Assembly: GCA_973895155.1 (NCBI GenBank)
Contig: OZ316893.1
Location: 12,354,359-12,418,358 of the forward strand
Source of the DNA: Marsupella aquatica
Lineage: Eukaryota; Plantae; Marchantiophyta
DNA length: 64,000 nucleotides
Direction: 5' to 3'
Shown here: positions 12,629 through 38,700 of the stretch, piece by piece
How the letters are laid out: each line of letters begins with the position of its first letter
Position numbering within the stretch: the first letter of the stretch is position 1
Notes under the pieces: generated by a model
The model's input: only the letters and a program-made list of their open reading frames with translations
Database searches by the model: none
Told to the model about the DNA's origin: nothing
Translations under genes and position numbers: made by a program

Positions 12629-12649
12629 ACACACACACACACACACACA
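12629..12649. repeat. (AC)n microsatellite
   Basis: About 10 AC units. Confidence 0.9.
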
Positions 12650-18094: not shown

Positions 18095-19750
18095 CTACTT
18101 GTGATGCAATTGCAAAACCTGCAATACGTCACGGTGTCTAGAGAAACTCTCCAAAGGAATCACTTTGGTAAATGCGTCAGCCGGGTTGAGTTTACCATCA
18201 ATCTTGACTACCTCAAACAAATTATCAAACACACCCTGCCTGATAAAATGGTACCTGACGTCAATGTGCTTCACTCTGCTGTCCATCACCTGGTTCACAG
18301 CAAGGTGGAGCGCACTTTGACTATAACAATGGAGCTTCACATTCCCCTGTGGCAATCTCATTTCAATTATAAGTCTATCCAACCAAATCGCTTCCTTTGC
18401 TGCTTCCGCAGCTGCAACATACTCCGCTTCTATAGTAGACTGAGCAATACACTTCTGCAAAGTAGATCTCCAACTTATGCATCCACCGCCAAGTGTGAAC
18501 ACGTATCCTGTTGTTGATCTCCTTCGGTCCAAATCTTGTCCATAGTCAGAATCTACATAGCCAATCAATGATCTAGCATTCTTTGCATTCGCATCAAATA
18601 AAAGACCATGATCCACGGTACCCTTCAAGTACCTGATAATCCACTTCACTGCTTCCCAATGTACCTTCCCTGGATTTGACATGTACCTACTCACCTTGCC
18701 CATAGCCATGGCAAGATCAGGTCTAGTGCAAGTCATCAAATACATGAGACTTCCCACTACCTTATCATAAGGAACCTTTGACATCAGCCCCTTCTCAGTC
18801 GCATCTGTGGGGCAGAAAGCTGATGATAATTTGAAGTGTGCAGCCAAAGGAGTACTTACTGGCTTGCTATCCCCCATGTTGAACCTAGCAATTACCTTTC
18901 TTGCATAACTGCTCTGTGTCAACCATAGCTTACTAGCCTCTAAGTCCCTAGTGATCTCCATACCCAAAATCCTCTTAGCTGGCCCTAGGTCTTTCATCTT
19001 AAACTCTACACTGAGCAGTGCCTTAAGCTTAACAATCTCAGACCTATCCTTGGCCGCAATAAGCATGTCATCCACATAAAGTACTAAAACAATGAACCCA
19101 AAGACAACATTCTTCACCGGTTTCAAATACACACAAGGGTCAAATACACTTCTGTGAAAACCCTGTGACCGAATCCAATCGTCAAACCGCTTGTTCCATT
19201 GTCTTGGTGACTGCTTCAACCCATACAAGGATTTCAGCAATCTGCAAACCAATTCCTCCTGTCCTCTCTTCACAAAACCTAACGGTTGTCTCATGAAAAT
19301 CACCTCTTCCAATGTGCCATAGAGGAAAGCTGTGACAACATCCATCTGATCTAGCAGCAGACCAAACATTACAACAAGTACACACAATAGTCGTATTGTA
19401 GAGTACTTAGCAACTGGTGAGAAGACCTCATTGTAATCCACACCTTTCTCTTGTGTGAATCCCTTTGCTACCAACCTAGCCTTGTAGACCTTTGATCCAC
19501 CTCCTGTGGAATTATCCTTCAACTTGTAAATCCACTTGCTGTCCACCACTTGCTGACCCTTAGGCAGCTTAACAAGCTCCCAAGTTTTGTTGTCCTTTAG
19601 TGACTGCATCTCCGTTTGCATTGCTGCAGCCCACTTCTGCTTCTCCTTTGAAGCACTGGCCTCATGAAATGAAGAAGGTTCCCCTTCTTCCGAAATTAAT
19701 GCATCATCCTCATCATCAGCTGCAAAATCATCCTCTTGCAGTTGAGATAA
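18095..19750 (-). pseudogene. Copia-2 pol, RT and RNase H portion (3' of the CACTA insertion)
   Basis: Motifs YKARLVAKGF, LYGLKQSPRQW, LYVDDML, YVDSDY and EAEY. The RNase H CD motif is altered to CYSQS. Confidence 0.93.
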
Positions 19751-22700
19751 CACTAGTAGAAACCGGGGTAATTTAGACCATACCTTATAGGACTAAGCCC
19801 ACTAAGTCCTTCTTCCATACTTTAAATGACTTGCACCCATTGCCAAGGTTTTGTTAAAGACTATAAAAGACTTTGAGTGTTTTCCGGTTTAGTTAAAGAC
19901 TATGAAAAGTAACCTTGCTACTTTGTGAAGGGTGAACACTCTAGGACATCATGGGTTTTGTTCTTGGAATCACTCTAAAGGTCCACACAAAGACTAGTTT
20001 AATACAAAGTCTTACAAGGGTTCATGATAAGAGTATACTTAAGAAGGACCGGGCGACATGCTACTTTTGGGTCTAAGTGCTTAAGGACATGCCTTCTATA
20101 TATCACCAACCTTAACTAACATTGCATCGTAAATATCCATGTAACGGGTACTTTTCATAACTTAGGGTACAATTGTACTAGAGGGCTTAGGGTGGTTTCT
20201 AACCGGAATCGGAACTAATGCATCACTATAACCCTAGCTAGGTACAACTCCCACACCATGATATATTCCGCATTGCCAACTAGTGTTGTTTTGACAGGGT
20301 CATGGGCACTAATTGACACAATGAACAGTCCACAACTTGATTGATTTGAGTGTAAATGATGGTGCCTTTTGATCCAAGATTAATTCCACAAGGGGGGGGG
20401 GGAGGGTTAGGGGGGCCCACAACTAATTAAGTGGCCATGACTTTGTCACCAAAGGGATTTATTTAAAGTTATCCTTAACCCTCTTTAGTTTTGTGTGTTG
20501 CCTAACACTCTGGCGCAAACGTACTTATTATGCTCAACGGGTCACCTCAACGGAAACGAGCTTACATGACTGCTTGCACTAAGTATTGGGTTAGGGTGAG
20601 TGTGCTTTGGTCATCAGGTGATTATTGGGTTTTTGTGAAGGGAACTATCGAGTACTTGCGCCCATGTGTTCGGGCCCCATTGTGCGACAGAACATTGTGC
20701 TTTGCTTCTATGAGTGGAGCATACGAGTAGGGTTTAGGGTTAACATTTTGCGAGGGAAGCTGGGAGGCGATTGTAGTCAATTGTTGCCATCCACTCCTGC
20801 GAGCGCTTTTGACAGTTCTACCTGCATGCCCCTTACAATTGTTTGGACAAAGGAGTTCAGCAAGTGGTTTGCGCTGGTTTGGGACCTTGACAGTCGTGAG
20901 GTGGTAAGGACATTGAGGCATCCCTGAGAAGCGCTTGATGGTAAGGACATTGAGGTGTTGGAGACATTGAGGCGTTGCGGACATTGCCTTAGAGGCTCTT
21001 GAGGCCAGTGACAGCTTTTGGCGCGAAGGCAAGCGGAGATTTGTCTCTTGCCTGAGAGCTGACAGCTTCGGATTGAGACAACGTGGGCGCACCAAGATTC
21101 AGAGAAGACTGACTGGCTGGGACCGACCGGTCTTGGGAAGTTGCAGCCGTGGAGGGACCGGGAGCGCTAAGGTACATTGCAGCTACGAGCAGCAATGCAC
21201 CTGCCATAGTGACATTGAACTGCCCTGAATCACCCTGGTTAGTCCAAACTTCCATTTGCAAGTTAGTTTTGGTAGTGGCTTTGGTTTTCTAGGCGGAATG
21301 AGCTCCGATGCCATGCATTAAGAATGTGGGAAATGCTATTTTGTAGCTTGCTACCTCATAGTGCTAATTTCAACTTCAGGTTTGCGTGGTTTTGGGCGAT
21401 AAGCTTGTGGCTCATTCGGACTGAGTGACCTTCCTGCGGGCCCTGCCCTAAGTGTTCACACTTCTCGCCGTCCCAAACTGCGAAAGGCTTCTCCCCGTTC
21501 TGTATCCCTGCTTCAGTAATTGTATTGAGGTCTTTCAATCAGTCTCATAGGGGAGGTCATTGTCTTCTCTGTAAGTTGTTGCTCCTATCGCACTACCAAG
21601 CTTGTTGAAGGGAGCTACTATCGCGAGCTGCTACCATTGCGAGCTACTACCATCGCAAGTTGTTGAGGAGAGGGCCAGTTGTTTGCGAAAGGATTTCCAG
21701 ATTGTGTCGGAGGTCCAGATTTCTTGCCTGTGGGTCCCCATGTTTGCAGTTTTTTCCTGGCTTCTTGCGCAGTGCTCCGACGTAGTACCCATGATGCTAG
21801 TCTGAACGGATTCATGAGCTGTGACTGATTTGCTGTTCAAATGATGTCTTCAACTAGAGCTACAATTAGTGTCTGCGGAGCTGCCAACCAGGTGCAGGTG
21901 TGATTGAGGTCAGTTCAACTGTTGGGTTGCCCGAATGTTCCGTTGCCATCATTTGTAACCACGAGCAATGGACTTTAGAGGCGGGATTTTCTAGGGATTT
22001 CTGCTCAACCCTTTGCTGGCTTTCTACTTTGAGGTCTATTTTGGGGTTCGGGCAAAGGGCGGAGGGCGAAGATCAAGCATTGCAGTTTTGCTAACGCTGC
22101 ATGGTGGAAATTGGACCAGCCAACTCCTTGTCTACGGTGTTGTGGAGCTGGGCGAGCTGCGACAAGGGACCAAGCCAGGCGACCTGTAAATCAAAGCCCA
22201 TTGACCGCTGCTGAAGGTTTGATGTTCTATATTTGAAGCTCTCGTTTGCTTTCTATTTGTCAGTCTTTCACAGCTGCGCATTAGTGTTGGCCCTATCCTC
22301 CGTCCCTCTACTGGCCTGCTACTGACATTTGGTTAATCATAGTTGTTCACTGCTGTGCATTAGTGTTGGCCCTATCCTTCGTCCCTCTGCTAGCCTGCTA
22401 CATTTGGTTAATCAAAATGCAATGTCTGTCTGAGTGAGCTGATCATCTCCAATGTAGTATGGGCTTGGGATTTACATATATGTTTCCTGCTTCCAGCAGA
22501 TAGGCAATTGCTTCCAAGCTCTTTGGTGCAGACGTCTCTATGGAATGCAATGCCCTATATGCCAGAGCTTTCATATATTGGCATGTTCACATTTGCTCTT
22601 GGAATATATGATCCCGAAAGCTTCATGAGCAGTTTATGTTCAGAATTCTGTTTATGTTATTGTTTCCGTCAATTGCAGCTTGGATTTTTGAATATATGTC

Positions 22701-23829
22701 CTGTCATTGATGATAGAGGGTGGTTGAGATTGGTTTTCGTTCTTCTTGGTAGTGGGTCAGTGTGTTGGCATTTTCCTCATGTCACTCATTCTCATCGGAC
22801 GAGCTGCGGATTGGTACTGAATAGTCATTTAGCCTATTGCTGCCTCCCACCGCCATTGCCGATTGCCGCTATCATCGTGTATTGCTTGCTTGCTTGCCAC
22901 TGCCTTTGTTGGTTGCCACCCTCTTCACACTCTCGCATCTATCTTCCGATATGAACGCGCAGCCAAGCCCACCAAAAGCTCTGTCCCTACAATCCCTCCC
23001 AAATCAACTTCCTTGTTTCCTACTGCTCATGATCATCGCATTGTTCTTCCCTATTTTGTTTACTTATTGGTCTCTCCACACTTGTTGCTTCACATGACTA
23101 TTTTGCTCCTCCCTGGATCCGAACATGCCTTGTGCCCAATGCTCCCACGGTGGAGTTGGGTGGTGAATAGACGACCTCAACACCATTGCAATCACATTTG
23201 GATGGGTTAGTTTTTTGCAGCTTAAACCTGTCGGGATTTTGTGCTTGTGGCGACGCTATCCTTTCTGCCACTTCATGAGTTTGTTTATGCTGCAGTGGGC
23301 GGTCTTGCGCAACTCAATGAGCCAATTTCATTTTCCCTGTGCACTTCTATTTCTCAGAGAATTCCCTGGTCATGCTCATTTGCCCCAGAGTTAGAAAACA
23401 AAGAAGAAGAAGAGCTGACTAATTGTAATTCCAATCCATATCCTGATCGGTCAAGGATTGTGAACTACATTGGCCTTGTCATTGGCCGAGGTCACCAAAT
23501 TTTGCTTGGTTTCATTCCTGTGGAGCACTGTTGTGATGGATGAATAGTTGTCGTAGCATTCTGCAAACTCTCACGGTTTGCTTATGGCCATTATTTGCAA
23601 TTTGCTGCTACTAATATGTCTCCGACTGAGCAGCATACACCGGAAGTAAGCAATAGTGGAGGTTTAACTGCACATCAACACATCCAGTGAACTACCTCTC
23701 TGCTGCTCACTGGAGGGTGAGACTTTCACTCTTTCTGGATATTGTAGTTTGTAAGCAAGTTGATTAGGAGTGTTTCATGCTATGTTTACATTGTGACCCC
23801 TAGCTGGAACCAATGGAATGACACAGTGA

Positions 23830-24402
23830 GTGGGAACTGATAATTTAAGGTTGGTTGCTGTTGGTGAGGCAAGTACAGCTCCTGCTCACCTTGCTGATCG
23901 AAGGTGCTTATCAGAGGACGTGAACACACGACACTCCACAAAAGCAACACTTATGGTGAGGACCCGCAATGCTGAACATGTGCGGCTTGCACGCAAGGCA
24001 GAGATGTTGCGCCTTGAGTATGTCAGACTTGGGATCCTTCCAGCCCAGTCTGCATGGTACTTTGAGTACCCAGTTGTTGCCAGGAATAACTACAGCCGCC
24101 CTGTACCTGCTTCTCCACCCTTCCCAACATCCTTGGTATTTTTGTCTCTCGTACATGACCCGCCACAAATTAGGGCCCAAGGGTGTGTGCACAGTTGCCA
24201 GTATGACTGTCCTGCCTGTAGGGCTTCTGGCCTAGAGTTGGATGACCGTTCTCTTGGATGTCGGTTTTTTCACAGAGCACAATGTATCATCTGGAACCAC
24301 TCGCCATCCTGCAGTGTGCCTGGCGATGTCACTTGTCCTGCCCTCCCAGACCCCACCACCGGTCACTTTGGTGTCTACACATGTTTGGATCACACGCTAT
24401 AG
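23830..24402 (+). CDS. Cys/His-rich hypothetical protein in the CACTA (start uncertain; first ATG at 23953)
   Basis: 190 open codons. The C-terminal half CVHSCQYDCPAC...GCRFFHRAQC...HSPSC...TCP...TCLDH is a possible zinc-binding fold. Co-oriented with the other cargo ORFs. Confidence 0.45.
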   Translation: MGTDNLRLVAVGEASTAPAHLADRRCLSEDVNTRHSTKATLMVRTRNAEHVRLARKAEMLRLEYVRLGILPAQSAWYFEYPVVARNNYSRPVPASPPFPTSLVFLSLVHDPPQIRAQGCVHSCQYDCPACRASGLELDDRSLGCRFFHRAQCIIWNHSPSCSVPGDVTCPALPDPTTGHFGVYTCLDHTL

Positions 24403-25071
24403 AAGACCACTTGTCACACCGCATGCACAGACCAGAGACCATTGACCTATAACTTAACACTTTGACTTGAACAGAGAGGATATTTACTTAAGATTTTGAA
24501 TTATGAGCAATTTTGGGTCCAGGGTTTACGGTCAACAGTACATAACTTATCCTATTATGGCTGCACTAAGTACAATATCCTAATTTAAGAGGCTAGCAAG
24601 CTCACTTAAAAGTCTCCTTTCAAAGACTGGAATTAATGGGCCATGTGATAACCTGGAAAAAGTGATTTATGCCTAACTTATTTGTCTCATTCACTATCAT
24701 AGCCTATTTAGGATGTATAAATTACAACCCTGATCACACTGCTTGATACCAATCCTGTTCAAAAAATGTATGTTTTACATGTCACGACTGTTATATGTGA
24801 TTCAAATGCATTAAATCTTGTTGCAGATCTCCTTTGGTGAATCATAGCCACAAAATTGAGGTGTAGGTGGAGCTATTGTACGAGGGGATCAGTTTTTAGT
24901 GTGGGCTCAATAAACCAAAAAGTATGTCTACTCTGCACATGTGTGTGAACATTTCATTGCAGTAGCAATTGCCACTCTAGTCTATATGCTACATTGTACT
25001 TTTTGTACACTGCACTAAATTGTATTGTCTGTGCACTCTACTAAATTGTACTATCTGTCTCAGGCATAGGC

Positions 25072-25752
25072 ATGGCACGCCCTAAAATCCGAGCCAAGAA
25101 GCGGGGGACAGAGGTGAGCAACACAGGTGTAGTTGGGCCAGATGGTAGTAACTTCTCCGCAAGTCAGATTTTCCAGAAGGCAGCTCATTGTTGTGCCATT
25201 TGTGACGATGGTGGTGGCTTAGCCATATGTGAGGGCCCTTGCATGAGGCATTTCCACCTCAACCCGGAGTCTGACCTTGCTGCAGAAAACAACTGTCCAG
25301 GGGTGGGCCTCCCGTCAGCACACCAGGGAGGCTGGATGTGCACTGCTTGTTTGGAGAAGCAGGCTAAGTGTGCACAGTGTGGGAAGTTGGGGTCTTATGA
25401 GGGCTCTGTTGATGCTCCACCACTTGTTAGGAAATGCCCTGACAGATATTGTGTGAGGTTCTTTTGTTTTTCATGTTTGCCCGATCTTGCCACAGCTTGC
25501 CCACTTCATAAGTGCAAGGCATGTGGTCAGCACGATGAAGATTTCTGGGTGGACATAGTCCACTGTGTTAGGTGTCCCACCATGTGGCACTTTCATTGTT
25601 TGAAGGAGCGTCAAGCAGAAGGCTATGCTTGTGACAGACACATCTATCATCACTCTGCACATGGTGTTGATCGATGGATCTTCTATTGTCATCGCCATGC
25701 CATAGATCCTACTTTGCACACTCCCATGAGAGATCACATTTCTTGGCTTTGA
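25072..25752 (+). CDS. EDM2-like PHD-finger cassette protein (226 aa), CACTA cargo
   Basis: CAICDDGG..CEGPCMRHFH..C..CTAC..CAQCGKLGS..CPDRYCVRFF..CPLHKCKAC..CVRCPTMWHFHCL..IFYCHRHAIDPTLHTPMRDHISW parallels the recalled EDM2 PHD region (CAICDNGG..CEGSCLRSFH..CPLHKC..CRRCPKSYHRKCL..IYCQEHEIDEELLTPVRDHVKF). Basic N-terminal NLS-like RPKIRAKKR. Intronless and open. Confidence 0.85.
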   Translation: MARPKIRAKKRGTEVSNTGVVGPDGSNFSASQIFQKAAHCCAICDDGGGLAICEGPCMRHFHLNPESDLAAENNCPGVGLPSAHQGGWMCTACLEKQAKCAQCGKLGSYEGSVDAPPLVRKCPDRYCVRFFCFSCLPDLATACPLHKCKACGQHDEDFWVDIVHCVRCPTMWHFHCLKERQAEGYACDRHIYHHSAHGVDRWIFYCHRHAIDPTLHTPMRDHISWL

Positions 25753-26350
25753 ACCTGAATAATGTACATGCATAGTGCACCTGATGTGGATACCTTGGAG
25801 ATTGCAGACATTCCAATTTTGAGAAGAAGGACCTCTGTAGGAGAGGATGCTTAGGCAACAAGTACCCTAAGTTCATTACTTGTTCCTGGGTACATGCCTT
25901 CAAAAACTCCCCTTAAGCCTTCTAGGAACTTTTTTAACTCTGCAATCATTTTGATCACGACTTACATGACACTGCTTAAATTAAATCAGGACTTCTCATT
26001 ATGAGCATATAAGTTACAAGGCTATTTAATTTGCGAGAATTCCCTTAAAGTGTACCAACATTTTCTATTCTCATTGAATGTCTGCCCATTTACAACATCT
26101 GTATGTGGCATCACAAAACAATTGCACTTGTCACCTTCAATATTGTCAAGGCACATATTCAAACTATGAGGTGCATGCTTGCAGGTGTCTAGTACGTTTG
26201 TCCCAATATTTCTCCCGTTTGGAATCGGAGCAGAGACTCACCAGACGACTGGACTGGACCAAGTTATAAACGCAGCATTTTAAGGGCCCTCCGATTATCA
26301 GGTGAACGCATTATCTTCCGGTCTACAGTGATTAGGTGGCCCGTGTGTAC

Positions 26351-27142
26351 ATGGCCTCTAGGAAACGTACAAAGGTTGACCACCCGCCTCTGTTGGCTGG
26401 AATCAAAGCCATTTTGATTCCTGGCCACTATGGGTTCACCCAAGTGAGTTGGCCAATCGTACAAAAACGATTCTCAGAGTTCCATGGGACTGAAGTCAAG
26501 GACATCACTCCACAGACTACACATGTTGTTGCGGGGACATGGCTGGATGTGATGAACAACTGGTCATGGTCCTTCATTGATTCTGCCATTACCAACCAAG
26601 GTCTAAAAGTAGTTGAAGTCTCTTGGCTGACCGATTCTGTTAAACATAGGTGTGTACAGAGTACTGAGCAATATGAGTTGTGGGAGAGTGAGGAGGCCAC
26701 TGCAGAGGCTTTGGCTGAAAAGGAAGCCTATGAAGCAGCGGCAGAGAAACCCAACTTTGCTTCTGTCCAATATGGACCTGTTGTCAACATAGGACACCAT
26801 CCTATGCGTGCAGATGCTATATTGAATGAGCATGGCAAGGAGAGAAATACCATTATGAAGGGGTTCAGTGTGGTATTTGCAGAAGAAGGAATTGGGGAGA
26901 CTAAGTGCAGATTGTACAAGTCTATAGTTGTTGAGCTAGGTGGGACAGTGGAGGAGAGTCTAACAGAAACCTCCACTCATGTTGTAGGTCTGTCATACAT
27001 GAAAATATGCAGAAATTTCTTTAAGACAACAGTGCGTGATTTTGTCATGAACAACAATCTTTGGGTGCTTTCCCCTGATTGGCTTCTGGAATCAACAGCT
27101 AGAGGGAAGCGACAGAATGCTTGGGACTTTGATATTTTTTAG
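26351..27142 (+). CDS. Tandem BRCT-domain protein (263 aa), DNA polymerase lambda-type BRCT-like, CACTA cargo
   Basis: Two repeats with BRCT hallmarks: LLAGIKAIL..HGTEVKDITPQTTHVVA..KVVEVSWLTDSVKH..EQYEL and MKGFSVVF..LGGTVEESLTETSTHVVG..VLSPDWLLESTARGKRQNAWDF. N-terminal RKRTK NLS-like motif. First ATG is at 26351. Confidence 0.85.
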   Translation: MASRKRTKVDHPPLLAGIKAILIPGHYGFTQVSWPIVQKRFSEFHGTEVKDITPQTTHVVAGTWLDVMNNWSWSFIDSAITNQGLKVVEVSWLTDSVKHRCVQSTEQYELWESEEATAEALAEKEAYEAAAEKPNFASVQYGPVVNIGHHPMRADAILNEHGKERNTIMKGFSVVFAEEGIGETKCRLYKSIVVELGGTVEESLTETSTHVVGLSYMKICRNFFKTTVRDFVMNNNLWVLSPDWLLESTARGKRQNAWDFDIF

Positions 27143-27439
27143 GCCTGGCCCTCCAAGATTCAGCGGAGATGTATGCTTAGCAAAGGTGGGAGAGAGTGAG
27201 GAGTAGGAGTCCCTCATATTTTTGTATAAATCACAATTTTGTAATAAATGTGATCCTTGAACTAACTCATCTTGTCATGGTTGGTCGCAGTTGAAGTGAT
27301 TGTTGTTTCCTGCTGCGTGGGGTGTGACTGTGAATCTACTTGCTGGGCTCTGTTTGGCTGAAGACTTTGGTGGGTATGCTGCCTCTTCCAGACCGTCAAG
27401 CCCTATGTAGGGTACGTCCTCCTACGGGTTGCATCGTGC

Positions 27440-27913
27440 ATGGCTACTGCTTGGGCTTACTTGTGTGGATTGGTAACCAGACAGAGTGTAGCTCCATCCG
27501 AGATAATGCCTGCAGACCTTGGATGTGTTGTGAATGCTGTGGTGAATGAGGATGCACAGTCGGAAGAGGATATTTACTTTTCAGCAGATGAGTTAGACAA
27601 GCACGATGCTGTAGGTGGTTCCTTGTTGCCTGATTTGGCAGATGATATAGTTCTTGCACATGTCTGGCCGAGGGTTCTTGTGGTGTCTGGCGCACAAGAT
27701 ATCTGCAAATATAGACTAATTAGTACCCAGTGGAGGGACTTGGTAGCAACATGTGCACCATGGAGGGCACTGCTGCCACTGCTTGTAGGCACGGATCGAA
27801 GACCACCATGGCATGAGCAGGGTTTAGACCTTGATGACTTAATGTACATGCCTGAGTACCTCAGGGCTGAGTGGCATCGACAACAGGATTGGTATCCGTA
27901 TTTGATGTGGTAG
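27440..27913 (+). CDS. F-box-only mini-protein (157 aa), CACTA cargo
   Basis: SLLPDLADDIVLAHVWPRV...ICKYRLISTQWRDLV matches the F-box pattern LPxLPDDI...RxVSxxWRxL. No kelch or LRR substrate domain follows. Confidence 0.65.
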   Translation: MATAWAYLCGLVTRQSVAPSEIMPADLGCVVNAVVNEDAQSEEDIYFSADELDKHDAVGGSLLPDLADDIVLAHVWPRVLVVSGAQDICKYRLISTQWRDLVATCAPWRALLPLLVGTDRRPPWHEQGLDLDDLMYMPEYLRAEWHRQQDWYPYLMW

Positions 27914-28240
27914 TAAGATGAGGACATCTCACACCGGTCTCGCACCTGGCACCTGTGTCTATGACTATACATGATTGGACTCTGATATGGTCATGGATGT
28001 ACGTGCAGAGGCAGTACATGTGAGGACAGCGGAGGAGTTGACACCCTCAAACATTTAGGAATTTTGTCTCATTCACTTGAGAATAGGTACATGACTCAGG
28101 CACCTATATTTTTTGTTTTTTTTGTTTTTTTGGAACGTTACGTATTTTGGCAAGTACAGTCAGGGGTGAAATCCTTAACAGGAAGTGTATTTTTCACTTG
28201 CATAATAAAATGACAGGGTGCTGAGTGCGTGTGTATAGTG

Positions 28241-31200
28241 ATGGCTCCAAGGTTGCCTCTTCACAACCCATTTAGGATTAGGCATCATGATTCTAAATTG
28301 TGGATGCGTGAACAAGCCCGGGCCGCCCAAGGTAGGAGTAGGAGGATGAGATGCCCATGCACACAGTGCCAAGGATTCAAGTCGTTGAGTTTGAACACTG
28401 TGCACCTTCACCTGCTGCGGCATGAAAGGCACCCTCGGTGGAGGGTTTGGAATGTACCAGCAGAAGAAGACTCCTCTGATGAAGAGTGGAGAGCTGACTT
28501 TGTGGATTCTAATACAGCTAGGCGTAGAGACTATGTAGAGCAGGACATAGACTGTGCAGAGGATGGTCCTGGGGTCCAACATGAGAACGTGGATGACCAA
28601 GATGGAGATGGAGAGGCAGTCACTGAGGACGGTGGGATGGATGTCCCAAGAATGGTTCAAGAGATTTTTGAAGACCTTGATGCTTTTTACGACACAGTGG
28701 AATCAGAAGAGGACAATGAACCGCAGCCACACATTGGCGACGGCCAAGCTGAACCTGACTTTGACATTGGGGAAGGTGCAGCAGAGAGGGAGTGGGTGTT
28801 TGGGGGCCCAAAACACATCAAAGAAGCTTGCATTCCTATCTACGAGGGGTCGAACTGCTCCAAGCTGGGTTTTGTCGTGTTGTTGTTGAACATCTGTGGC
28901 AATCACAATGTTCCCAATATATTTGTGACAGAGTTGTTGACCTTCCTGCGCCGAAATGTGTTACCAGATGGTAATTCAATTCCAAAAAATATGTACGAGG
29001 CTAGGAAATTGATGTCTAACCTTGGGCTGAACTATGTGTCTATTGACGCATGCCCTGATGGGTGTGTTCTCTTTCGCAAAGAGCATGCAGATAAATTGAC
29101 ATGCCCTCATTGTGGTAAGCACAGGTACAAGAATGTAGGGAAATGTACACACCCTGCCAAGGTTCTTCGTCATTTTCCTCTCATTCCTAGACTACAACGT
29201 CTGTTTAGATGCCCTGCCATTTCCAAGCTGATGACATGGACTCCTGATAACAAGAGCAGTGATGGCCTGCAGCGTCACATTGGAGATTCCAACCATTGGA
29301 AATTTGTTGATGAGAGGTGGCCACAGTTTGCTGCAGAGAAGCGGAACTTTAGATTTGGTCTATCACTGGATGGAGTAAACCCATTTGGAGACAAAAACAA
29401 CCGTTATTCATGTTGGCCGGTTACGCTGCTAAATTACAACCTTCCCCCATGGATGACTACAAAGAGGTTTTTTGTCATGATGGTGCTGTTAATCCCTGGA
29501 CCAGCTTCTGTGACCGAGCAATTCATAGATATCATGTTGGCTCCAGCAGTGGAAGAGTGGAAGACTTTGTGGATAGAAGGGGTGTTAACCCATGATGTTC
29601 TGAAGGGGCTTCTTCGACCCAGCCCCTTTAGACTGCATGCAATTTGTTTGCTGGATATAGCAGATTACCCAGGCCATGGCATCATATCTGGACGAGTGAC
29701 AAAGGGCTATGTGGGGTGCACACCATGTGGGAAAAATGTGACAAGTGAGTGGTCGCATGCCCTGCACAGTATGAAATTTCAGGGGCATAGAAGGTATCTG
29801 CCTGTTGATCATCCTTACAGGCACACACGGTCTCAAATTGCACACTTCAACAACAAAACAGAGCTTCGTGGCCCACCACAGAGGGTCACCAGAGAGCAAG
29901 TCCTGAGGTGGGCAGCCAGGAAGGCTGATTGGGACAAGAGAAGTGCCACTGATCGAGAACCTGAGGATCCAGTGGTGAAACACGGTGTGAAAAGACAGAC
30001 CTTGATGGACTTGGAGTTGGAGTACTGGAGGGTAATGTACTTAGCCTCCAGCCCCTGTATGATTGCAATTTTAGATTGGAGCAATGGTGGATTGATGTTG
30101 GTTACAATCCTCCTATGTGGTTAATTAGTGTTTCTGTTGTTGAATTCTTTGCTTTGTGGAGTGCAGGAATTCGAGCCCAGCAAACACAATATGGACGTCA
30201 TGCACATTGAGAAAAATATTTGTGAGAGCTTGCTGAAGTTCTTGTCGGGTGAGAAAGATACAGGAGCAGTTCGAGCTGATATGCAACAGAAGGGGATTCG
30301 CCCTCACCTTTGGTTGAAGCCCCATGCAAGCAATCCCAATGTACTTCTCAAGTTCCAAGCTCCCTATGTGTGCACACAGGATGAATGGAAGACATTCTTG
30401 TATAGATTGAGCTGTCTGAAAGTGCCCTCTGGCTATGCTGGTGCCTTCAAGAAGCATATTACAAAGAATAAACTTGGCAGTATGAAAACACATGACTACC
30501 ATGTGTTGATGCAGCACATTCTGCCCCTATGCCTCAGAGGTCTCATGCAGAAACCAGTCCGTAATGTCATTCTTCGACTGTGCAATGTATTTCGCCGTAT
30601 ATGTGTGAAAGTGTGGGATCCCCAAGGATTGGAGCAGTTGAAGCAGGATGCTGCTTATGTCCTCTGTGACTTGGAGATATACTTCCCCCCTGCTTTCTTT
30701 GATGTTATGACTCATCTCCTAATCCATGTGGTAGAAGAGCTAGGGCAGTATGGGCCAGTCAGTACCAGATGGATGTACCCTATGGAGCGATACATGAAGT
30801 TGTTGAAAGGTCATGTGAGAACATACTACAGGCCAGAGGCTTCCATGGCATTGGGGTACATTAAGGATGAGACGTTGGGATTCCTAACAGAGTACATGGC
30901 TGGGTCTGGTGAAGCTATGACAAGAGTTTGGAAATCTGGTGAAGATGATGGAGTGAGTGGCGAGGTTGTTGAAGGTGTGGGACGTGCTGTTCAACTGCCT
31001 GTTGCGATTCGAGACAAGGCTCATTCATATGTGCTGGCAAACACAGAGCCTATGCAACCATGGTGGAGGTGAGTGATTGAATTGACTTGCCTTTGTTGTG
31101 ATGCTTCTTGTCTGTTCCAAGGGTGATCTTAGGTTGTCATGTGTTGTTTAGACTAACTATGCCTGTACCTCATATTGCAGAGAATATGATATGCAAAAAG

Positions 31201-31940
31201 CTGCACACTCTGGGCAGCAGGATCCCTTCCCACAGTTCGAGCAGTGGATTCGGGTGACAATTCGAGAGCATAGTAGACATCACCCAGATATGGAGAAGGA
31301 TTTGTATCTTCTATCTGTGCCACCACGATTGTCTATTCTGACCTACAAACGGATGAGAGCTTATGGAAATCATTATCGAGTGAGGGATGAGCAGGGTGAC
31401 CATTGTGTATCATATGATTGTGGTTTGATTTCTGTGTTTGAGCAGAGAACCTCTGAAGAACAGAGGGGGTGGATGAAGATGGGTTACGTGGGGGAGTTGA
31501 CCGACATTTGGGTGTTGAATTATGGTAACACAAGTGTCCCAGTGATATTGATGAAGGGATCATGGATGAAATCAGAGTGGCAGAGACCAAGGGTCACCAT
31601 GAAGCGTGATCATGATGGGTTCTTGTTGGCCAATTTTAGGTCCAGAGTACCAGAATGGTCTGAGCCTTTTGTTTTCCCTAGCCAAGTTGAACAGGCTTTC
31701 TTTGCAGATGTGGAGGAGTCACATGGCTGGAGGGTGGTATGCCATAGCCAAGCACGGAACAGGCGGATGGATGGAAGTAAAGTAGAGTTCAGTTTGGATG
31801 ACCATGCTGCATTCGAGCATCCTAGTCATGAGACTGTACTTCCAACTCGGGCAGGGACTGACTACATCCCCTTAACATTGAGAGAGACATATGATGAACC
31901 TGGGCAAATGGAATATGATGAGGTTGATGATTTGCAATAG
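28241..31940 (+). CDS. CACTA TnpD/Tnp2-type transposase; exons 28241-30031, 30167-31068, 31181-31940; ~1150 aa, apparently intact
   Basis: Motifs CPCTQC (transposase-associated), IDACPDGCVLF, RHFPLIPRLQRLF, LSLDGVNPF, NYNLPPW, DYPG, DVMHIEKN, KTHDYH, FPPAFFDVMTHL and RWMYPMERY, with a DUF4216-like C-terminus (EPFVFPSQVEQAFF). GT-AG introns keep the frame. Confidence 0.93.
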
Positions 31941-32117
31941 GCAACAGCTGGCGATTGGCAAGTATGAGGTTGAGGATGACTACCTGCACAGAGTCACAGA
32001 ACGGGAATTGTTGCCTGGAATGATGTTTAGGATAGTTGGATATGCATGAAATTGATTGATACTTTGAATTTAGTGTGCTGATTCTCCCTGTTTGGTTGTG
32101 GGTGCTGTGCAGAAGCT

Positions 32118-35100
32118 ATGGGGGAAGAGGGTGATGACATGGAGACAGACATGGGGCTTGGAGAGTGGGGTGAAGAGGAAAGATTGGATATGGATGGAGA
32201 CCCAGGTGTAGGGGGCTCACAGAAAAATGCACCTGTGCAAGATGCACAGGGCCCTCATCAAGTCCCAGGTAGGTGGGCAGCTAGAGAGAAATAACATAAT
32301 CCATACCCTAGAAGGAGCCAGAGTTATTGGCAAGGGACGCCTGATAATTATGATGATGACTATGATGGAGCAGAAGATGGATGGGATGAATATGAACACC
32401 CAGAGCGTGGTAGAGACGGGTACAGAGGGCAATGGAAAGGTGAGGAGGATGATTGGACAAGTAAGTGCCTTGTGCTAGTGATTTTGTGATGGTAGTAGAG
32501 ATTTAGCTCAATATGCACTTATCTGATGTGTAGCTAGGGCAAAGAGTTTATCTTACAGGTCCATGAGTGTGGCATGTACCTGTTGGTATGCAGACTCTGA
32601 TTGGGACAATCACGAAAACAACAAAGGCCATCCACGTTCAGATAGGAGGCAATCATTCACAGGCGGGAGAAACGCCCCTAATTCATCAAGACAAAGCAAT
32701 AGGACAGGTGGTCCAGAACCATCTATGCGCCAAGGGAGAGGTAACTTGGTCATTGCAGAATTGCTCTGAAGTCCACTGTATATTTGGCAGCGGGATTTAT
32801 GATTCATACTTACCTAATGTAAGTGACTGTAAATGGATCCTGTAAATGTGCAGGGACTCCAGGGAGGTTTGGACAATGCAATCCAGGCCGTGGGGGGAGA
32901 TCAGGCCGTGGAGGGACCCCAGGCCGTGGGGGGACACCAGGCCGTGGAGGGACACCTAGTAGCGCTTCAGGGAGTACCAGGGCAGGAGACAGTAACAAAT
33001 TTGGTAAAGTAGAAGTGAATTCCGAAGGTTGGATAACTCCCACATGTGATGGTAAGAACCGTTGGCATTCTGACCTAAGAGGAGAAGTATTGCGTTGGTT
33101 AGATTTGAGCATTACAGAGTTTAGGAGTTAGAATAAAGCTGATTGGGCTGCTATCTGCAAGGACATTCTTGAACGGTGGGAGTATGTTGGTAATGATGGT
33201 AAGGGCCCAGTTGAAGATTGCATATCAGATTATGCAATGAGGATTTTGAAACAAGAGAGGCATAGGTTGAAAAGGATGTGGATAGACAATGGTTCTAACA
33301 GGAGAATGCCACCACCCCCATCATTGGAACTGGATCAATGGACACGGTTAATCAAAGGGTTCATGTCGGAGGCTGGACAGAGCAAGAGTGAACTGATGTC
33401 AAATGCTCGAGGCAAAGTGAAACACCTTTCACAGGCTGGGAGAGGAAGTTATGCTCCAGTGAAAGAACAATTGGTAAGGCAGTGACATGCCTGATAGTAA
33501 GCCTCAAACTTATCATCTTGCTACCATTGACAATCAACACTTGGTTTCATTCATATGTATGTTGATGTGGACTGCAGAAGAAATTGACAGGTGAAGAACC
33601 ATCAGCACAAGAAGTGAGAGAGGAGTTCATGAAACAAAGGAGTGAGGTGACAAGTGTAACTTCCAAACAGGTGATTATGTTGTAATTCTGTATGTTCTGT
33701 GACTATTTGGCCTTGAGCATCAGAAAGAAATGTAGTAGGAAGTAAGCAACCAGTTCTTGGGGACAGTTATCTGAGATATGTAAGCTGTGTTATGACAGGG
33801 AACTGTTACAACTCTCACAGAGATGTGTGAACGGTTGAAGTCATTAGAGTGTGGACTCCCTCAAGTGGAAAGTAAATTGGCTGATCGTTTGGATATTGTG
33901 GAGGCATCTGTAGCGAACCTTCTTGCATCAGTGGAATCTAATTTCAAGCTTGTGATTGAAAAATTGGGTGGTTCCCAACCAAACAATGAGGGCAACATTG
34001 TACAAAGTGTGCCCTTGTTAACAAAAAAAGGAATTGGCAAATCTGACACAGGTATGGAAATGACACCGGCCCATTGTTCATTGTGTCCTATGTTCAAATG
34101 TTAGAAGTAAGTTTTCATGAATTGAGTGAATGGTTTGAATGCAGGAAGAGTGGAGGCAGAGAAGGACCCTGTAATCAGTAAGCAGAAGGGCAAGAAGGTT
34201 GCTGAGACAGGTAACCTGCTATGATCCAGTACATTACATTTGAAAAGTGCATGGAGTTTTGTGAAGCTTAAGCCGGTTGGAGGTAATCTTTTCTGTAAGA
34301 ACTGGTTGGATGAACTGGGATCTGAAGTGACATCATGATTGATGTATCAGGTGATTCAAAGAGCAATAATGAAGAAGATGTGCCCAGTGCCTCAGTGACC
34401 ATAGCCAAGGAGGTATCAGGTAAGCTGATGCTTTAAATTCCTCTATATGAATGTTGAGCAACAATTCAGTGGTTAATAGATTCAACGTGAATATTGTGGT
34501 GTGTTTATTGATCAACAGAAGCAGACATGGAGCATATGGCAATGGCAAAGAAGGGGAAGAAGGCTGTTCATAATGGTAAGGAGATAGTGACAACTTTGTG
34601 GTTGGTGACATGTACATTTAGCACATGTGATGAGTGATTCACTTATGTTGGACATGACACTGAATTGTAGTTGATGCAGAGTTGACAGACTCTCAACCAA
34701 GTGGGAGCAGGGTGAAGCGACGTCGAAACTTGGGAGCAACATTGGATGCAAGTAAGATTGTAGATGCTTCAATTGAAGCAAGTACAATGTTGGCAGATAC
34801 TGAGATGATGTCGCAGGGAAATCCTGCTACACAATCAGAAGTGTCAAATATGGATGCAGATTCTTTGAAGAAGAGTGTAGCCAATTCTCGATCACCAGCA
34901 CAAAACACTCGTGCCAAAGTCATGACTCGCAACCAAGGTATGAATAATGTCATGTATAAGCCACCCAGGAAAGCCAAGAAAAACAGCCAGGGTAAGGTGG
35001 AGGTGATAGCCATAGCAGAGCCAGTCCATAATCTTCTATCATGGGAGGATGACTCGCAGGTATGTGTGGGTACAGGCATTTTGCGACCGGATCATGCAAA

Positions 35101-35275
35101 ATTCCATGGCAAAGTGGTCCCGGATGACCATGTAGTAGTGTTGTTGACTACAGTGATTGTATCTGATTGTAATTTGCTATTTCCGAATAGAGACGATGAT
35201 CCACCTCAGGAAATAATTGCAGATGCAGTAGGATCTCTTGTGCTCTGGCCATCAGAGTGTGTTAGTCTGCAGTGA
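32118..35275 (+). pseudogene. CACTA TnpA/Ptta-like multi-exon gene with premature stops
   Basis: The ATG at 32118 follows a CAG acceptor. Many short GT-AG exons. Ptta-like WTRLIKGFMSEAGQSKSELMSNARGKVKHLSQAGRGSY and C-terminal FHGKVVPDDHVVV...DAVGSLVLWP. In-frame stops TAA (~32292) and TAG (33129-33131). Internal exon boundaries are not fully resolved. Confidence 0.75.
32884..32957 (+). repeat. 18-bp coding minisatellite x4 encoding (P/S)GRGG(R/T)
   Basis: CAGGCCGTGG(G/A)GGGA.. repeated four times in the TnpA-like exon. Confidence 0.85.
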
Positions 35276-36102
35276 TTGAATGCAAGTGTAGATAGAATCA
35301 TGTGAATTGTGTCACATTTTGACATTGCCTTGGAAAGATCCAAGAAATATCTGTACCAATTTTTCCATTTGGTAAAGAGGATGAAGGAGCCGTTGTGTGT
35401 GACATTGATATTTCTGAATTCTGTATGTATGAAACAATTGATTGATGTCAAACTATGGCTCTATGGTGATTGTCTATGATACTTGAATCTGTTTTGTATC
35501 ATTTCAGTATTAGTGTGTATGGTATAGAGGAATACTTTGTGACCTTCTTTGTAGTCTATGAAGTTTGAATCTGTGAATTCATATTAGTGTACATGGTATA
35601 GAAGATGGCTTTCTGAAACTATGTATTCTAATGTTAACATGATGAATGGTGAACTTATAGAGTGAGTTCATTCAAGTACACAATAAAACATGAATGCAAT
35701 ATGTTATTTGTGCACAAGAGTGGGTTCATTCCAAGTAGTATAGTGGGGTCTTCATCACTCATATCCAGTTGACATGAAAGACTTATACATACCCCACAAA
35801 GTATATTTAAAGACTACCCTCCATAACCTTTTTAGTCGTTCCCAACGACTCACCATCTCAGCCCATAAAAGACTGAAAACGACTCACCAAAGCTACCCAC
35901 ACAAAGACTAAAATAGACTGAAAATCCAGTCTATTAAACGACTTATAAACCAGTTCTATAAAGGACTCAGTTGATTATAGTAACAAAACATACGACTCGC
36001 AGTCCTATAAAGGACTGGAGTCCTTCCCAGTCGTTTCCAAGTCCTATACGGTACTGAATAGTCGTTTAATGGGGTCTAAATACCCCCCAGTTTCTACTAG
36101 TG

Positions 36103-38700
36103 TAAATCAACCCACTGTCCATACCTAGGAGGAGCACGTACAGTACGACCAGATGTTCTTCTAGCCGATGACTCTGGTTGAATTGCGTCTACTGGTACAA
36201 TTTGAAGCTCAGCAGCATCCATTTGCTGCTCACCAACATCAATAAACTCCTTTTTTTTCTCTGGCACAGGAACCAGCTCCATGCTTGGAGCACCTTCTTC
36301 TCTCCGATCATGCACTTCATGATCAATCTCCCCCTCAATGAGATTCGGGATAGGAGATTTTTCTTTGTCAGTACGGGAGACCTGAGTATTCTTCCTCTCC
36401 TTCAATAATCTGGATTCATTGAAAGAAACATCCCTACTAACAACGAGCTTACAGGCAATAGGATCCCATAACCTGTAGGCCTTCACACCACTCTGATACC
36501 CAAGAAAAATACATTTCTTGGACGTAGGATCCAACTTGGTCCTATTCTACTTTGGTGTGAGAGCATATGCATCACTTCCAAAAACTACCAAGCCATGATA
36601 GACTGCTTGCCGCTAATAACGCATTTCAAACGGCGTTTTGAAATTGACTGCACTAGAAGGAGAAAGATTTACCAAATAAGCTACAGTATTGACAGCTTCT
36701 GCCCAAAATTCCTGTGGTAAACTTGATTGGCTTAGCATACTCCGTGACCGCTCCAATAGTGTTCGATTGAGCCTCTCAGCTACACCATTCTGCTGTGGAG
36801 TATAAACTGAGGTGAGATGACGAGTTATCCCCTGTTCTGCACAGTACTCTTCAAATTCTATTGAAGTGTACTCCCCACCGTTGTCTGACCTTAGACTCTT
36901 CACCCTTGTATCCAAACACTTAACCGTGTTTCCTGTCTGATTCTCTACTTGGGCCTTCCACTTTGTAAAAATGGACAAGACATCAGACTTATGCGTCATG
37001 AAATAAATCCATACAAATCTTGAGTAATCGTCAATAAAGGATACATAGTATAATTTTCCAGAATGTGAGGGAGTCGGGGATGGTCCCCACACGTCACTAT
37101 GTATGTACTCAAGAACCATTTTGGAATGATGAGTTCCAACACCGAAAGCACGACGATGCTGCTTTCCAAAAATGCAATGCTCACAGAAATCCAATTTACA
37201 AGACTGCAAATCAGAAATGAGCCCATTCTTCTGCAAGATAGCCAAACCCTTCTCACTCATGTGGCCTAGCCGTGAATGCCACAGTTGAGTCATTTCCTCG
37301 TGAGACTTGGTCACATTGGCCTCTCCACATACTGTATTGCCCTGCAACACATACAAATTCTTCTGTCTGCGCCCCTTCAAAATCACTGTCTCTCTCGACA
37401 TGACTTGAAGTTCATCATCAATTACTCGCTATTGATGACCATTTGTATCCAACACACCGAGTGAAATCAAATTCTTACGCATGCCAGGTATGAACCTGAC
37501 TCCGGACACTATGCGCACAATGCCATCAAACATTTGAATCTTTACAAACCCAATACCCTCAACTTGACAGGAGTGATCATTTCCCATCAAAACTGAACCG
37601 TTTGACACAGAATAAGAATTAAAATACTCGCGAATGTAACAAATGTGAAAGGAGCAAGCACAATCAAGAATTCACACATCATTTGCTCTCCTAGATGATG
37701 TGCACAGGGCATACTCCTGACTTCATAAAACATACTCATCGTTGAGTAAATCAACTTCTCCATCAACACTAGCCACATTGGCTGATGAAGATTCAACTAC
37801 CTTACCCTTACAATCCCTCTTAATGTGGCCAGTCTTGCCACACTTCCAGCATACCACCGGCTTCCTCTCTTGGGACTTCCCCCTTGAAGCAAATCTTGTC
37901 CTAGATTTACTTCTTCCCCTGCCATTCGTGTGGTGCTCTGGATGCTTCTGTGACCTCCCACGATTCACATTCAAGGCAGCACCAGACGACGATGATGGCT
38001 GAGAGGGCATGGTCAATTTCTGCTGCAAGTCATCAGTCAACAGAGCACTTACAACTTCATTGTAAGTGATAGTCTTCCTGTCATGATGAAGCAGCACTCG
38101 TGACAATGACTGATACGACAAGGGTAAAGAGCTAAGCAAGTGAAGAGCCTGTCGCTCATCACTCAAATCCTCCCCCAGATTTTGCAAATCAACGACCAGG
38201 TCGTTGAAACCATCGATATGGTCCTGAATCTTTGCACTTCCCTCCTTCATCTTGAAGCTCATAAGCTTCAAAGATGTGTAGAGCCGATTCGATAGCTCAT
38301 TTTGATGGTACTTTTGCTCCAACGCGGCAAACAATGATGCACAATTGACATGGTCTACCAATTGCTTGATGACATTAGGCTGAAGATAGAGCATCACGGT
38401 GCTCATAGCCTACTCCTGCATGTCCTGCCAATCATCATTGTCGACATCATTTGGCTGGTCCTTCAGCAATTTCCCAAGCCCGGTCACACGAAGTACCCCC
38501 TTCACTTGTCGCTCCCACAATAAGTAGTCCGTGCGGCCATCGTATTTTGTAACCTCAAACTTGGGACCTCCAAGCTTGATTGTCCCCATCCTTTTTCTTG
38601 TCACTCGCCACAATACCGGTGACCACAATTCCGCTAGATCTTCTGCTTCCTCCTCTGTTCTCTCCGGTGACTCAATAGAACCCTCCTCCAAGTCACTCAT
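36103..38700 (-). pseudogene. Copia-2 gag-protease-integrase portion with multiple stops and frameshifts
   Basis: KFEVTKYDGRTDYLLW gag start, CWKCGKTGHIKRDC knuckle, LWHSRLGH, HSDVWGP, SDNGGEY, QNGVAERLN. Stops at 38410, 37723 and 36613. Confidence 0.92.

Follow-up and report, generated by a model that had tools for sequence, protein, structure and literature searches.

The 64,000-nucleotide stretch of Marsupella aquatica DNA analyzed here (the window) holds a 16.4-kb CACTA element at positions 19751-36102, as delimited by its ends and by an empty insertion site (Table 1). The first-pass annotation had described CACTA ends with terminal inverted repeats and a target-site duplication, and these were found: the repeats at 19751 and 36102 agree in 15 of their first 16 bases, form the best-scoring pair within the window and have the CACTA...TAGTG form of the CACTA/EnSpm superfamily, and the 3-bp duplication TAA, likewise typical of the superfamily, lies on either side. 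An empty-site joint skipping 19749-36104 was seen in contigs of three of the four sequencing runs. The AAAGACT-type 7-mer occurs eight times in the two 400-bp ends versus two times in the 15.5-kb interior. The insertion has split a Copia LTR retrotransposon, leaving what we take from the translations to be its reverse transcriptase to the left and its integrase and gag to the right. The two LTRs differ by six mismatches and one 36-base gap, and this host Copia element is young. No Rfam family was found in the CACTA element, and no nested element with clear ends was found in its 5' part.

Table 1. Features of the CACTA element and its insertion site (window positions).
Feature	Position	Strand	Remarks
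Copia LTR retrotransposon split by the CACTA insertion	17502..39901	-	LTRs 17502-17904 and 39463-39901
Left target-site duplication TAA	19748..19750	.	end search and empty-site joint
Left CACTA terminal inverted repeat	19751..19766	+	15/16 bases match right end
Left subterminal short repeats, AAAGACT-type	19805..19995	.	7-mer counts
5' stretch, summed contig depth far below that of the remaining element	20064..22883	.	contig depth table; no gene identified
ORF1, 190 aa stop to stop	23830..24402	+	first ATG 23953; Cys/His-rich C-terminal half
ORF2, 226 aa, stand-alone EDM2-type PHD cluster	25072..25752	+	disordered, H3-like basic N-terminus
ORF3, 263 aa, two BRCT domains	26351..27142	+	less conserved linker
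ORF4, F-box-like, likely frameshifted near 27412	27376..27913	+	ATG after break 27440, 157 aa
TnpD-type transposase, 1150 aa, open	28241..31940	+	predicted exons 28241-30031, 30167-31068, 31181-31940
Second multi-exon, TnpA-like gene	32118..35275	+	PF03004, weak
Right subterminal short repeats	35777..36045	.	7-mer counts
Right CACTA terminal inverted repeat	36087..36102	-	end search
Right target-site duplication TAA	36103..36105	.	end search

Four runs, each from a different study, supplied contigs for every one of the 30 bins of the element. In run X2, summed contig depth ranges from 76,000 to 359,000 over the cargo bins (23448-27959), from 129,000 to 258,000 over the transposase bins (27960-31907) and from 5,700 to 15,600 over 20064-22883. 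Depth over the cargo and its spacers is similar to that over the transposase, with many contigs at 90-99% likeness. The CACTA family is therefore multi-copy, with diverged copies that span both transposase and cargo, and the cargo extends beyond this one copy. None of the contig pieces listed bridges cargo and transposase. The 5' stretch, whose ORFs gave no Pfam match, is likely subfamily-specific.

The transposase, reported as intact in the first-pass annotation, is indeed open as a predicted three-exon frame, and putative catalytic positions can be assigned within the spliced model. It carries PF02992 (201 bits) and DUF4218, with weak matches to PF13963 and DUF4216. The C(2)C and H(3-4)H motifs of TnpD-type DDE transposases, as defined in the text available from PMC12730594, were located in the 1150-aa model. 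A search of the transposase against viral contigs yielded no usable locus. The TnpA-like gene scores 17.7 bits with PF03004 (threshold 28.7) and has in-frame stops at 32292-32294 and 33129-33131 in the window copy.

Accessory frames upstream of the transposase

Four stop-free plus-strand frames of at least 180 aa lie within 23400-28200. Among 2000 composition-matched resamples, 1963 contained no such frame, 36 contained one and a single resample contained two; three or more never arose. That the cassette consists of chance open frames or is an assembly artefact is hardly credible: besides the resamples, domain and homologue matches of ORF2-4 and the contigs that span all 30 bins in four runs speak against it, and for ORF2-4 they refute it. 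What favors it is ORF1, which has no detected homologue (no match in Pfam, NCBIfam or the Atlas, and chance-level PDB matches only) and a low Atlas recognition value (1617), though its contig coverage is deep in all four runs. The four compact head-to-tail ORFs are present as frames, that of ORF4 likely broken in the window copy. The broader claim that all four are intact host-type modules holds for ORF2 and ORF3 and is ruled out for the set by ORF1, without a match, and by the likely frameshift in ORF4.

The EDM2-type PHD assignment of ORF2 is borne out by profile positions 33-215, which match the named EDM2 protein P0017 (E 1.6e-30) over the whole PHD cluster. Only PHD models were found in it, with neither an RFD domain nor a long C-terminal methyltransferase-like part, so the 226-aa protein is not an EDM2 orthologue, though it may work like part of EDM2. 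Its predicted fold resembles H3-binding PZP and NSD PHD-C5HCH structures, and the PHD cluster may be a reader of modified H3 tails. Five stand-alone relatives of ~220 aa are 38-81% identical to it and retain the cysteines; compared with P0004, 20 of 22 cysteines are kept versus 63 of 185 other residues (p 3e-7). In quick trees, of which one was built from rows matching at least 150 profile positions with the first 50 long relatives and the other two omitted the long-branch short rows P0144 and P0145, 12 stand-alone PHD proteins form one branch with a long stem (SH-aLRT 99), separate from the named liverwort, lycophyte and flowering-plant EDM2-type proteins. Nesting of the stand-alone family with the liverwort EDM2-like group was not rejected by the AU test (p 0.34). 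For the 15 stand-alone clusters looked up, NCBI and UniRef yielded no record, in contrast to the long EDM2-type proteins of liverworts, Selaginella and flowering plants, which are recorded from annotated genomes. Several stand-alone clusters are also truncated or lose similarity midway; both features are expected of repeat copies omitted from gene annotation. Searches of the PHD alignments against viral and metagenome contigs gave no usable locus. A metagenome search with P0157 gave one 19-residue marine match, which was rejected.

Basic, NLS-like N-termini, as noted in the first-pass annotation, are present in the sequences of ORF2 and ORF3. The PHD family often begins with a histone-H3-like tail of the form M-A-R-x-K, often with K9. 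Such a tail would be hard to tell from a basic arm that serves nuclear import or DNA contact. The initiator motif M-Z-R-x-K is the defining mark of H3 N-terminal mimics, and 48 of some 21,000 human proteins carry it (PMC8166343, available text). It stands at the initial Met of nine of 19 hand-chosen family members (ORF2 and eight others) and of none of 118 long relatives, a pattern spotted post hoc among members that are not independent. For ORF2 alone, the match in H3 register has p 0.068, and a single-sequence PDB search with its N-terminus gave no match. Mimicry of the H3 tail by ORF2 seems to us fairly unlikely.

The identification of ORF3 as a double BRCT protein agrees with PF00533, which scores 52.7 bits (cut-off 21.3) over two stretches, and with the alignment of its two halves to each other (E 1e-6). 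One stand-alone relative, near full length, is 60-61% identical, with 136 of 207 positions shared in the BRCT domains versus 23 of 55 in the linker (p 0.001). A Pol lambda or NHEJ origin had been suggested, yet the best matches among the solved structures listed are LIG4 (E 0.004), BRCA1 (E 0.04) and TdT (E 0.28), with Pol lambda not among them, and that parentage cannot be taken as established. A single-sequence PDB search with ORF3 gave no match and the BRCT alignment found no usable locus in viral contigs.

ORF4 is likely frameshifted in the window copy, as the N-terminus of its homologues matches a different frame, from the ATG at 27376, and most contig depth lacks four bases at 27412. The claim that the ORFs are open does not fully hold for ORF4. 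Regarding its F-box identity, Atlas F-box clusters agree at 0.90-0.92 with 96 shared features, and Pfam matches are below threshold in three of four family members (best E 0.0011). FBXW11 and FBXL5 are weak matches (E 0.5-0.8), the predicted structure is poor (pLDDT 37), and a single-sequence PDB search gave no match. Three stand-alone relatives, near full length, are 51-55% identical. Two short bacterial matches of the F-box alignment in prokaryote genomes (E 3-5e-4) were rejected.

Age and selection

The diverged stand-alone relatives with their conserved residues support the view that ORF2-4 encode old modules which lie at a great distance from annotated host families and were kept by long purifying selection. 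Recent Pack-type debris is rejected on the long branch of ORF2 away from annotated host genes and on its conserved ligands, in agreement with the first-pass annotation; the element also has its own open transposase. In a neutral simulation linked to the ORF2 and ORF3 comparisons, both frames were left open in 0-11 of 4000 trials, a result biased by a protein database that lists open frames only. The diverged homologues may be transposon-borne.

The dN/dS check proposed for the cassette gave a split answer: deep protein divergence indicates constraint, while 40 listed differences (of 82) among recent ORF3 copies comprise 13 synonymous and 27 non-synonymous changes. With omega about 0.6-0.8 (p 0.08-0.28 versus neutral), this variation is not distinguishable from neutral. 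All four listed ORF2 differences are non-synonymous, and other copies have a 91-base deletion within ORF3 and a 43-base deletion within ORF4. Since five of the seven listed transposase differences are also non-synonymous, near-neutral drift in recent copies is not peculiar to the cargo.

Possible roles of the accessory genes

We tentatively interpret the window copy, at somewhat less than even confidence, as a partly decayed member of a multi-copy, autonomous-type CACTA family whose accessory genes may target the chromatin, repair and ubiquitin machinery of the host. Three unrelated intronless modules lie head to tail in one unit bounded by terminal inverted repeats and target-site duplications, and they are probably long-term transposon accessory genes; if they are, the PHD protein would in turn have a good chance of a silencing-related role. 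Acceptor-like sites ahead of ORF2 (9 nt upstream of its ATG), ORF3 and ORF4 point to alternative splicing from a common 5' leader as the likely mode of expression of the ORFs. Arabidopsis EDM2 is described as binding H3K9me2, affecting over 2,000 TEs and suppressing proximal polyadenylation (PMC7529245, available text). Since ORF2 retains only the histone-reading part of EDM2, the PHD protein would sit on the H3 tails of silenced copies, either in competition with host EDM2 or in its place, and its H3-like tail could further lure readers or writers of H3K4/K9. At excision breaks, the tandem BRCT protein could recruit repair factors or shield them, the F-box-like protein could engage Skp1 as adaptor or decoy, and the three genes would keep the element expressed and mobile. 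A more specific version, in which an old plant CACTA lineage carries a virus-like cassette for manipulating the host, centered on a miniature EDM2 fused to an H3-tail mimic and supported by a BRCT repair adaptor and an F-box, is unlikely.

Another possibility is that the modules are small host genes or retrocopies from a little-annotated plant lineage, carried as passive Pack-type cargo and now drifting. The near-neutral variation among recent ORF3 copies speaks for it, as do the ORF4 frameshift, the deletions seen in copies of ORF3 and ORF4, and the fact that locus searches in viral, metagenome and prokaryote sequences gave no genomic context for the distant homologues; capture by Pack-CACTA elements is moreover presented as an established process in the available text of PMC13317346. 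However, the element would have had to capture three separate whole intronless genes, all head to tail on the same strand and preceded by acceptor-like sites. The missing annotated-genome records of all 15 stand-alone clusters, set against those of the long EDM2-type proteins, the many truncated members of the PHD family and the mostly non-synonymous differences of the transposase also weigh against passive cargo, which we consider somewhat unlikely.

The accessory genes could instead serve cut-and-paste transposition itself, the PHD protein steering the transposase to an H3 mark, the BRCT protein passing the breaks on to repair and the F-box-like protein limiting transposase levels. RAG2 offers a parallel, as its PHD steers RAG1 to chromatin with a chosen H3 mark. 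The conservation evidence fits this explanation equally, the PHD model resembles H3-binding structures, the window copy sits inside another transposon, and EnSpm transposases and RAG1 have motifs in common (PMC12730594, available text). In Arabidopsis Spm, anti-silencing is attributed to TnpA itself in the text available from 10.64898/2026.08.24.746577, and a TnpA-like gene is present here. Yet a single insertion site carries little information on targeting, and kinship with EDM2, a transposon-silencing and RNA-processing factor, together with the H3-like tail, suits a conflict over silencing better; a role in cut-and-paste appears quite unlikely to us.

Comparison with known systems

CACTA ends, a 3-bp duplication and subterminal repeats are common to this element and to the CACTA/EnSpm elements maize En/Spm and Arabidopsis Spm1/Spm3, as are a TnpD-type transposase and a putative second, TnpA-like gene by the criteria in the available text of 10.64898/2026.08.24.746577. 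The element here differs from known Spm in its length of 16.4 kb and in the four extra frames upstream of the transposase. The Spm anti-silencing factor is TnpA, a transposase-derived DNA-binding protein, and the main text of the same report does not mention PHD. Red algae and fungi are already known to harbor EnSpm elements with several genes, accessory genes of chromatin type among them. The red-algal giant Plavaka (EnSpm) elements, including those of Chondrus (PMC6431247, available text), are the closest architectural precedent: they are 17-19 kb long with three long-retained accessory genes, PAG1-3, some of them chromatin-related (10.1101/2025.02.11.637652, available text). Their cargo is given there as a DNA methylase/SET protein, a 2OG oxygenase and one unknown protein, whereas the cargo here consists of non-enzymatic reader or adaptor modules (EDM2-type PHD, BRCT pair, F-box-like), likely those of a land plant. 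Fungal TET/JBP DNA transposons, EnSpm among them, carry a captured chromatin gene with a proposed role in escape from silencing, but this is one DNA-modifying enzyme, and the available text of PMC12730594 describes no reader, repair or ubiquitin module with it.

VANC of VANDAL Mutator elements is a plant accessory protein, proposed to derive from the host chromatin regulator MAIN and turned anti-silencing; it belongs to another superfamily and is sequence-specific and experimentally proven (PMC13547354, available text). Pfam scans, the sole basis of comparison, show no likeness between VANC and ORF1-4. Host EDM2, as described in the available texts of PMC7529245, PMC3632883 and PMC10241880, has the whole PHD cluster in common with ORF2, but it is about 700-1600 aa long versus 226 aa, and the RFD seen in flowering-plant EDM2 is absent from ORF2. 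Nothing beyond the PHDs is common to the two, ORF2 lies on a separate long branch, and its H3-like start is absent from the 118 long relatives. Pack-CACTA elements also hold host-derived sequence between CACTA ends (PMC13317346, available text), but here the element has its own transposase, and in place of recent fragments it carries whole, conserved frames far removed from annotated host genes. The cargo set of EDM2-type PHD, BRCT pair and F-box-like protein was not found in our literature searches, and the frequent H3-like start of the PHD family is new here.

That none of the stand-alone families appears in the annotated records checked suggests that masking conceals a layer of genes encoded in repeats. 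Proven plant transposon anti-silencing factors are sequence-specific DNA binders (VANC, TnpA), and a conserved transposon-borne EDM2 reader, if true, would open a second front of histone-mark reading and RNA 3'-end choice. If the virus-like cassette is real, anti-silencing would combine reader and decoy, the PHD protein reading silenced chromatin while its tail baits H3K4/K9 writers and readers, a route unlike that of VANC or TnpA. The small single-domain proteins make these ideas directly testable. Histone mimicry is known from viruses and host proteins, and a conserved H3-like tail on a transposon protein, if true, would extend it to plant DNA transposons.

Element structure, insertion and copies

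In a window-wide scan of all CACTA-type start/end pairs, the top-ranked pair delimits a 16,352 bp element whose terminal inverted repeats are identical at 15/16 bases, with TAA flanking either end and AAAGACT-type short repeats concentrated at the termini (8 in the ends versus 2 in the interior). The element splits a minus-strand Copia retrotransposon, and the empty site (19748 joined to 36105) is present in contigs of three of the four public runs aligned to the region, bearing out the bounded CACTA ends proposed in the first-pass annotation. The two LTRs of the interrupted Copia, 6 mismatches and a single 36-base gap apart, set an upper age: the insertion is not older than this small divergence. 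CpG sites are depleted throughout the element, at an observed/expected ratio of 0.17-0.53, in contrast to CHG (0.93-1.44), and the flanking Copia elements are alike. Judging by the homologies of transposase, Copia and EDM2-type module, the host is probably a land plant.

Positions of the features discussed
Feature	Position	Strand	Description
Second Copia	5925-11757		LTRs 99% identical
Extra ORF in second Copia	6186-6698	+	Antisense to pol; RNase H1 N-terminal (Cauli_VI) domain, 53.9 bits
ORFs without confident Pfam match	13000-16500	-	150-206 aa; one coiled-coil-like
Repeated segment	13884-14110		Repeated at 40568-40797
Interrupted Copia	17502-39901	-	
CACTA element	19751-36102		
5' stretch of element	20064-22883		About 3 kb
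ORF1	23830-24402	+	
ORF2	25072-25752	+	226 aa
ORF3	26351-27142	+	263 aa
ORF4	27376-27913	+	
TnpD-type transposase	28241-31940	+	
TnpA-like gene	32118-35275	+	In-frame stops at 32292-32294 and 33129-33131

Each of the four runs covers every one of the region's 30 bins. Run X2 gave 15,794 contigs, with likeness from 99% down to below 90%. Its summed contig depth, which is not copy number and is used here solely for family membership, is similar over cargo and spacers (76,000-359,000) and transposase (129,000-258,000); the cargo is thus part of a multi-copy family. Among the contig pieces listed, none spans cargo and transposase of another copy. The 5' stretch, where neither a gene nor a nested element was found, has a depth far below the remainder (5,700-15,600) and is likely variable among subfamilies.

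Canonical splice ends bound the three exons of the transposase model, which encodes 1150 stop-free residues (1147 with an alternative acceptor), in keeping with the intact transposase first annotated. It matches PF02992 (201 bits) and DUF4218 (96 bits), and PF13963 and DUF4216 more weakly. The multi-exon TnpA-like gene lying 3' of it matches PF03004 weakly. Its two in-frame stops indicate that this copy is partly decayed; at the first, another base stands in the whole of the contig depth listed for three runs.

In the second Copia, a single in-frame stop near 9130 separates the gag-integrase frame from the reverse-transcriptase frame, and the antisense ORF is an extra gene within a retrotransposon. 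Given the repeated segment in the table, the interrupted Copia may itself have split an older element.

Cargo genes

Upstream of the transposase, 4.8 kb hold four plus-strand stop-free frames of at least 180 aa, exceeding chance expectation (2000 resamples gave at most two). Consensus matches alone mark acceptor-like sites upstream of three start codons (by 9 bases in ORF2, 23 in ORF3 and 86 in ORF4) and AATAAA-like signals downstream of ORF2 and ORF3; these suggest that the cargo would be expressed by alternative splicing from one common leader.

ORF2 has five stand-alone relatives, short single-module proteins of 217-245 aa (81, 75, 53, 40 and 38% identical) sharing a near-identical end point. 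With a profile search, 549 proteins reached E <=0.001; in the best 150 examined, short proteins are mostly on top and long ones follow, named as EDM2 or PHD proteins in Neltuma, Selaginella, Marchantia, Riccia and Calypogeia, which agrees with the EDM2-type PHD assignment made earlier. The proposed divergence from the host family also held: in quick trees with EDM2-type proteins, 12 stand-alone proteins form one long-stemmed branch (SH-aLRT 99) outside the sampled land-plant proteins. A further quick tree placed 15 of 21 short rows in this branch, while 5 others grouped as fragments with host EDM2. A second EDM2-like group apparently exists in liverworts (P0013, P0016, P0018, P0027 and P0030, homologues that stop shortly after the PHD cluster). 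This group is a candidate donor, and an AU test is compatible with nesting the branch there (p 0.34). The ORF2 structure model is confident at residues 27-221 (mean pLDDT 77); its best fold matches are NSD PHD-C5HCH pairs and, at E 6e-5 with low TM-scores, the H3-binding PZP domains found in JADE1 and BRPF1.

In histone H3 register, the predicted ORF2 protein starts M-A-R-P-K (25072-25104) and, numbered from the residue after Met, has A in position 7 and K in position 9. N-terminal H3 mimics have been defined by M-Z-R-x-K, found in 48 of about 21,000 human proteins (PMC8166343). Among 19 stand-alone members, hand-picked from match lists, 9 carry this motif at the first Met versus 0 of 118 long relatives, and 16 have the Z-R-x-K register anywhere before the PHD. 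The 13 members beginning M[AT]R have K4 in 10, A7 in 6 and K9 in 6; T3, Q5, T6, R8 and S10 are largely unmatched. Within-sequence shuffles put p at 1e-4 for 13 rows and at 7e-4 for 9, the rows sharing ancestry, and at 0.068 for ORF2 alone. This is a conserved basic motif within an otherwise variable disordered stretch; we take H3 mimicry as a lead, nuclear import being no less simple a reading. A combined role as reader and H3 mimic seems unlikely.

ORF3 contains two BRCT stretches that align mutually at E 1e-6, in line with the BRCT pair first annotated. It has one near-full-length relative (60-61% identical), and its solved-structure matches include LIG4 (E 0.004), BRCA1 (0.04) and TdT (0.28); Pol lambda is absent from those listed.

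The earlier picture of four open modules needs correction for ORF4 and ORF1. ORF4 has three stand-alone relatives (51-55% identical), its Pfam F-box match is below threshold in 3 of 4 family members, matches to two F-box proteins of human lie at E 0.5-0.8, and in Atlas, a protein-cluster resource, F-box clusters score 0.90-0.92 and rank below unnamed ones. The N-termini of two relatives align to another frame, from ATG 27376, and 4 bases at 27412 are absent from most contig depth (79,509/104,765 in run X3, 70/70 in X5), so ORF4 is likely frameshifted in this copy. ORF1 has no meaningful match in Pfam, NCBIfam, Atlas or PDB, and the 6 differences listed for it include 3 synonymous ones. Its summed contig depth tops the cargo in X2 and X3, and its C-terminal half is rich in Cys/His; the region may be common to non-autonomous derivatives or encode an unrecognised zinc-binding protein.

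Selection and possible function

Deep comparisons of the predicted cargo proteins show constraint. Between ORF2 and the homologue P0004, 20/22 cysteines are kept versus 63/185 other residues; ORF3 and its relative keep 136/207 positions in the BRCT domains versus 23/55 in the linker, and ORF4 and its relatives 25-32/47 in the F-box-like core versus 5-11/36 in the N-terminal part. When neutral evolution was simulated down to the observed identities, both frames stayed open in 0, 9, 5 and 11 of 4000 trials, a result biased by the protein database taking in open frames only. The expectation of selection on the cargo is thus supported at depth, but not among recent ORF3 copies: the 40 of 82 differences listed comprise 13 synonymous and 27 non-synonymous changes and no stop (omega about 0.6-0.8, p 0.08-0.28). 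Synonymous changes make up 5 of 19 coding differences tabulated from contigs. The transposase has the same pattern (2/7 synonymous), as expected if most copies drift once inserted. NCBI and UniRef records are lacking for all 15 stand-alone clusters checked, and truncated members occur several times, which favours repeat-borne homologues; locus searches in viral and metagenome contigs and prokaryote genomes yielded no genomic context for them.

Passive capture would fit the recent copies, and we find it doubtful; a targeting or transposition-helper role is quite unlikely. That the cargo are long-term transposon accessory genes is probable. Arabidopsis EDM2 is described as binding H3K9me2, altering marks or transcripts at more than 2,000 TEs and suppressing proximal polyadenylation (PMC7529245, PMC3632883, PMC10241880). 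The ORF2 protein would be the EDM2 reader module alone, most simply competing with or replacing EDM2 on silenced copies. Full host manipulation, whose every functional step we infer, falls somewhat short of an even chance. Overall, the first-pass observation was largely right, with corrections in places, and its interpretation is plausible and partly supported.

Comparison with known systems

Large EnSpm elements are described that bear accessory cassettes in red algae (10.1101/2025.02.11.637652, PMC6431247) and TET/JBP in fungi (PMC12730594), and VANC is proposed to derive from a captured chromatin regulator (PMC13547354). Titles and openings of the mainly open-access literature, Repbase and supplements lying outside it, yielded no EDM2-type PHD, BRCT or F-box gene in CACTA elements. 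A survey of Spm that covers 962 Repbase structures reports accessory domains of various kinds among them, and this absence may have to be read against its supplements; it also describes Spm TnpA as an anti-silencing factor and TnpA-like proteins as apparently confined to flowering plants (10.64898/2026.08.24.746577). Given that reported restriction, the TnpA-like gene found here would be of note if the host is a non-flowering plant.
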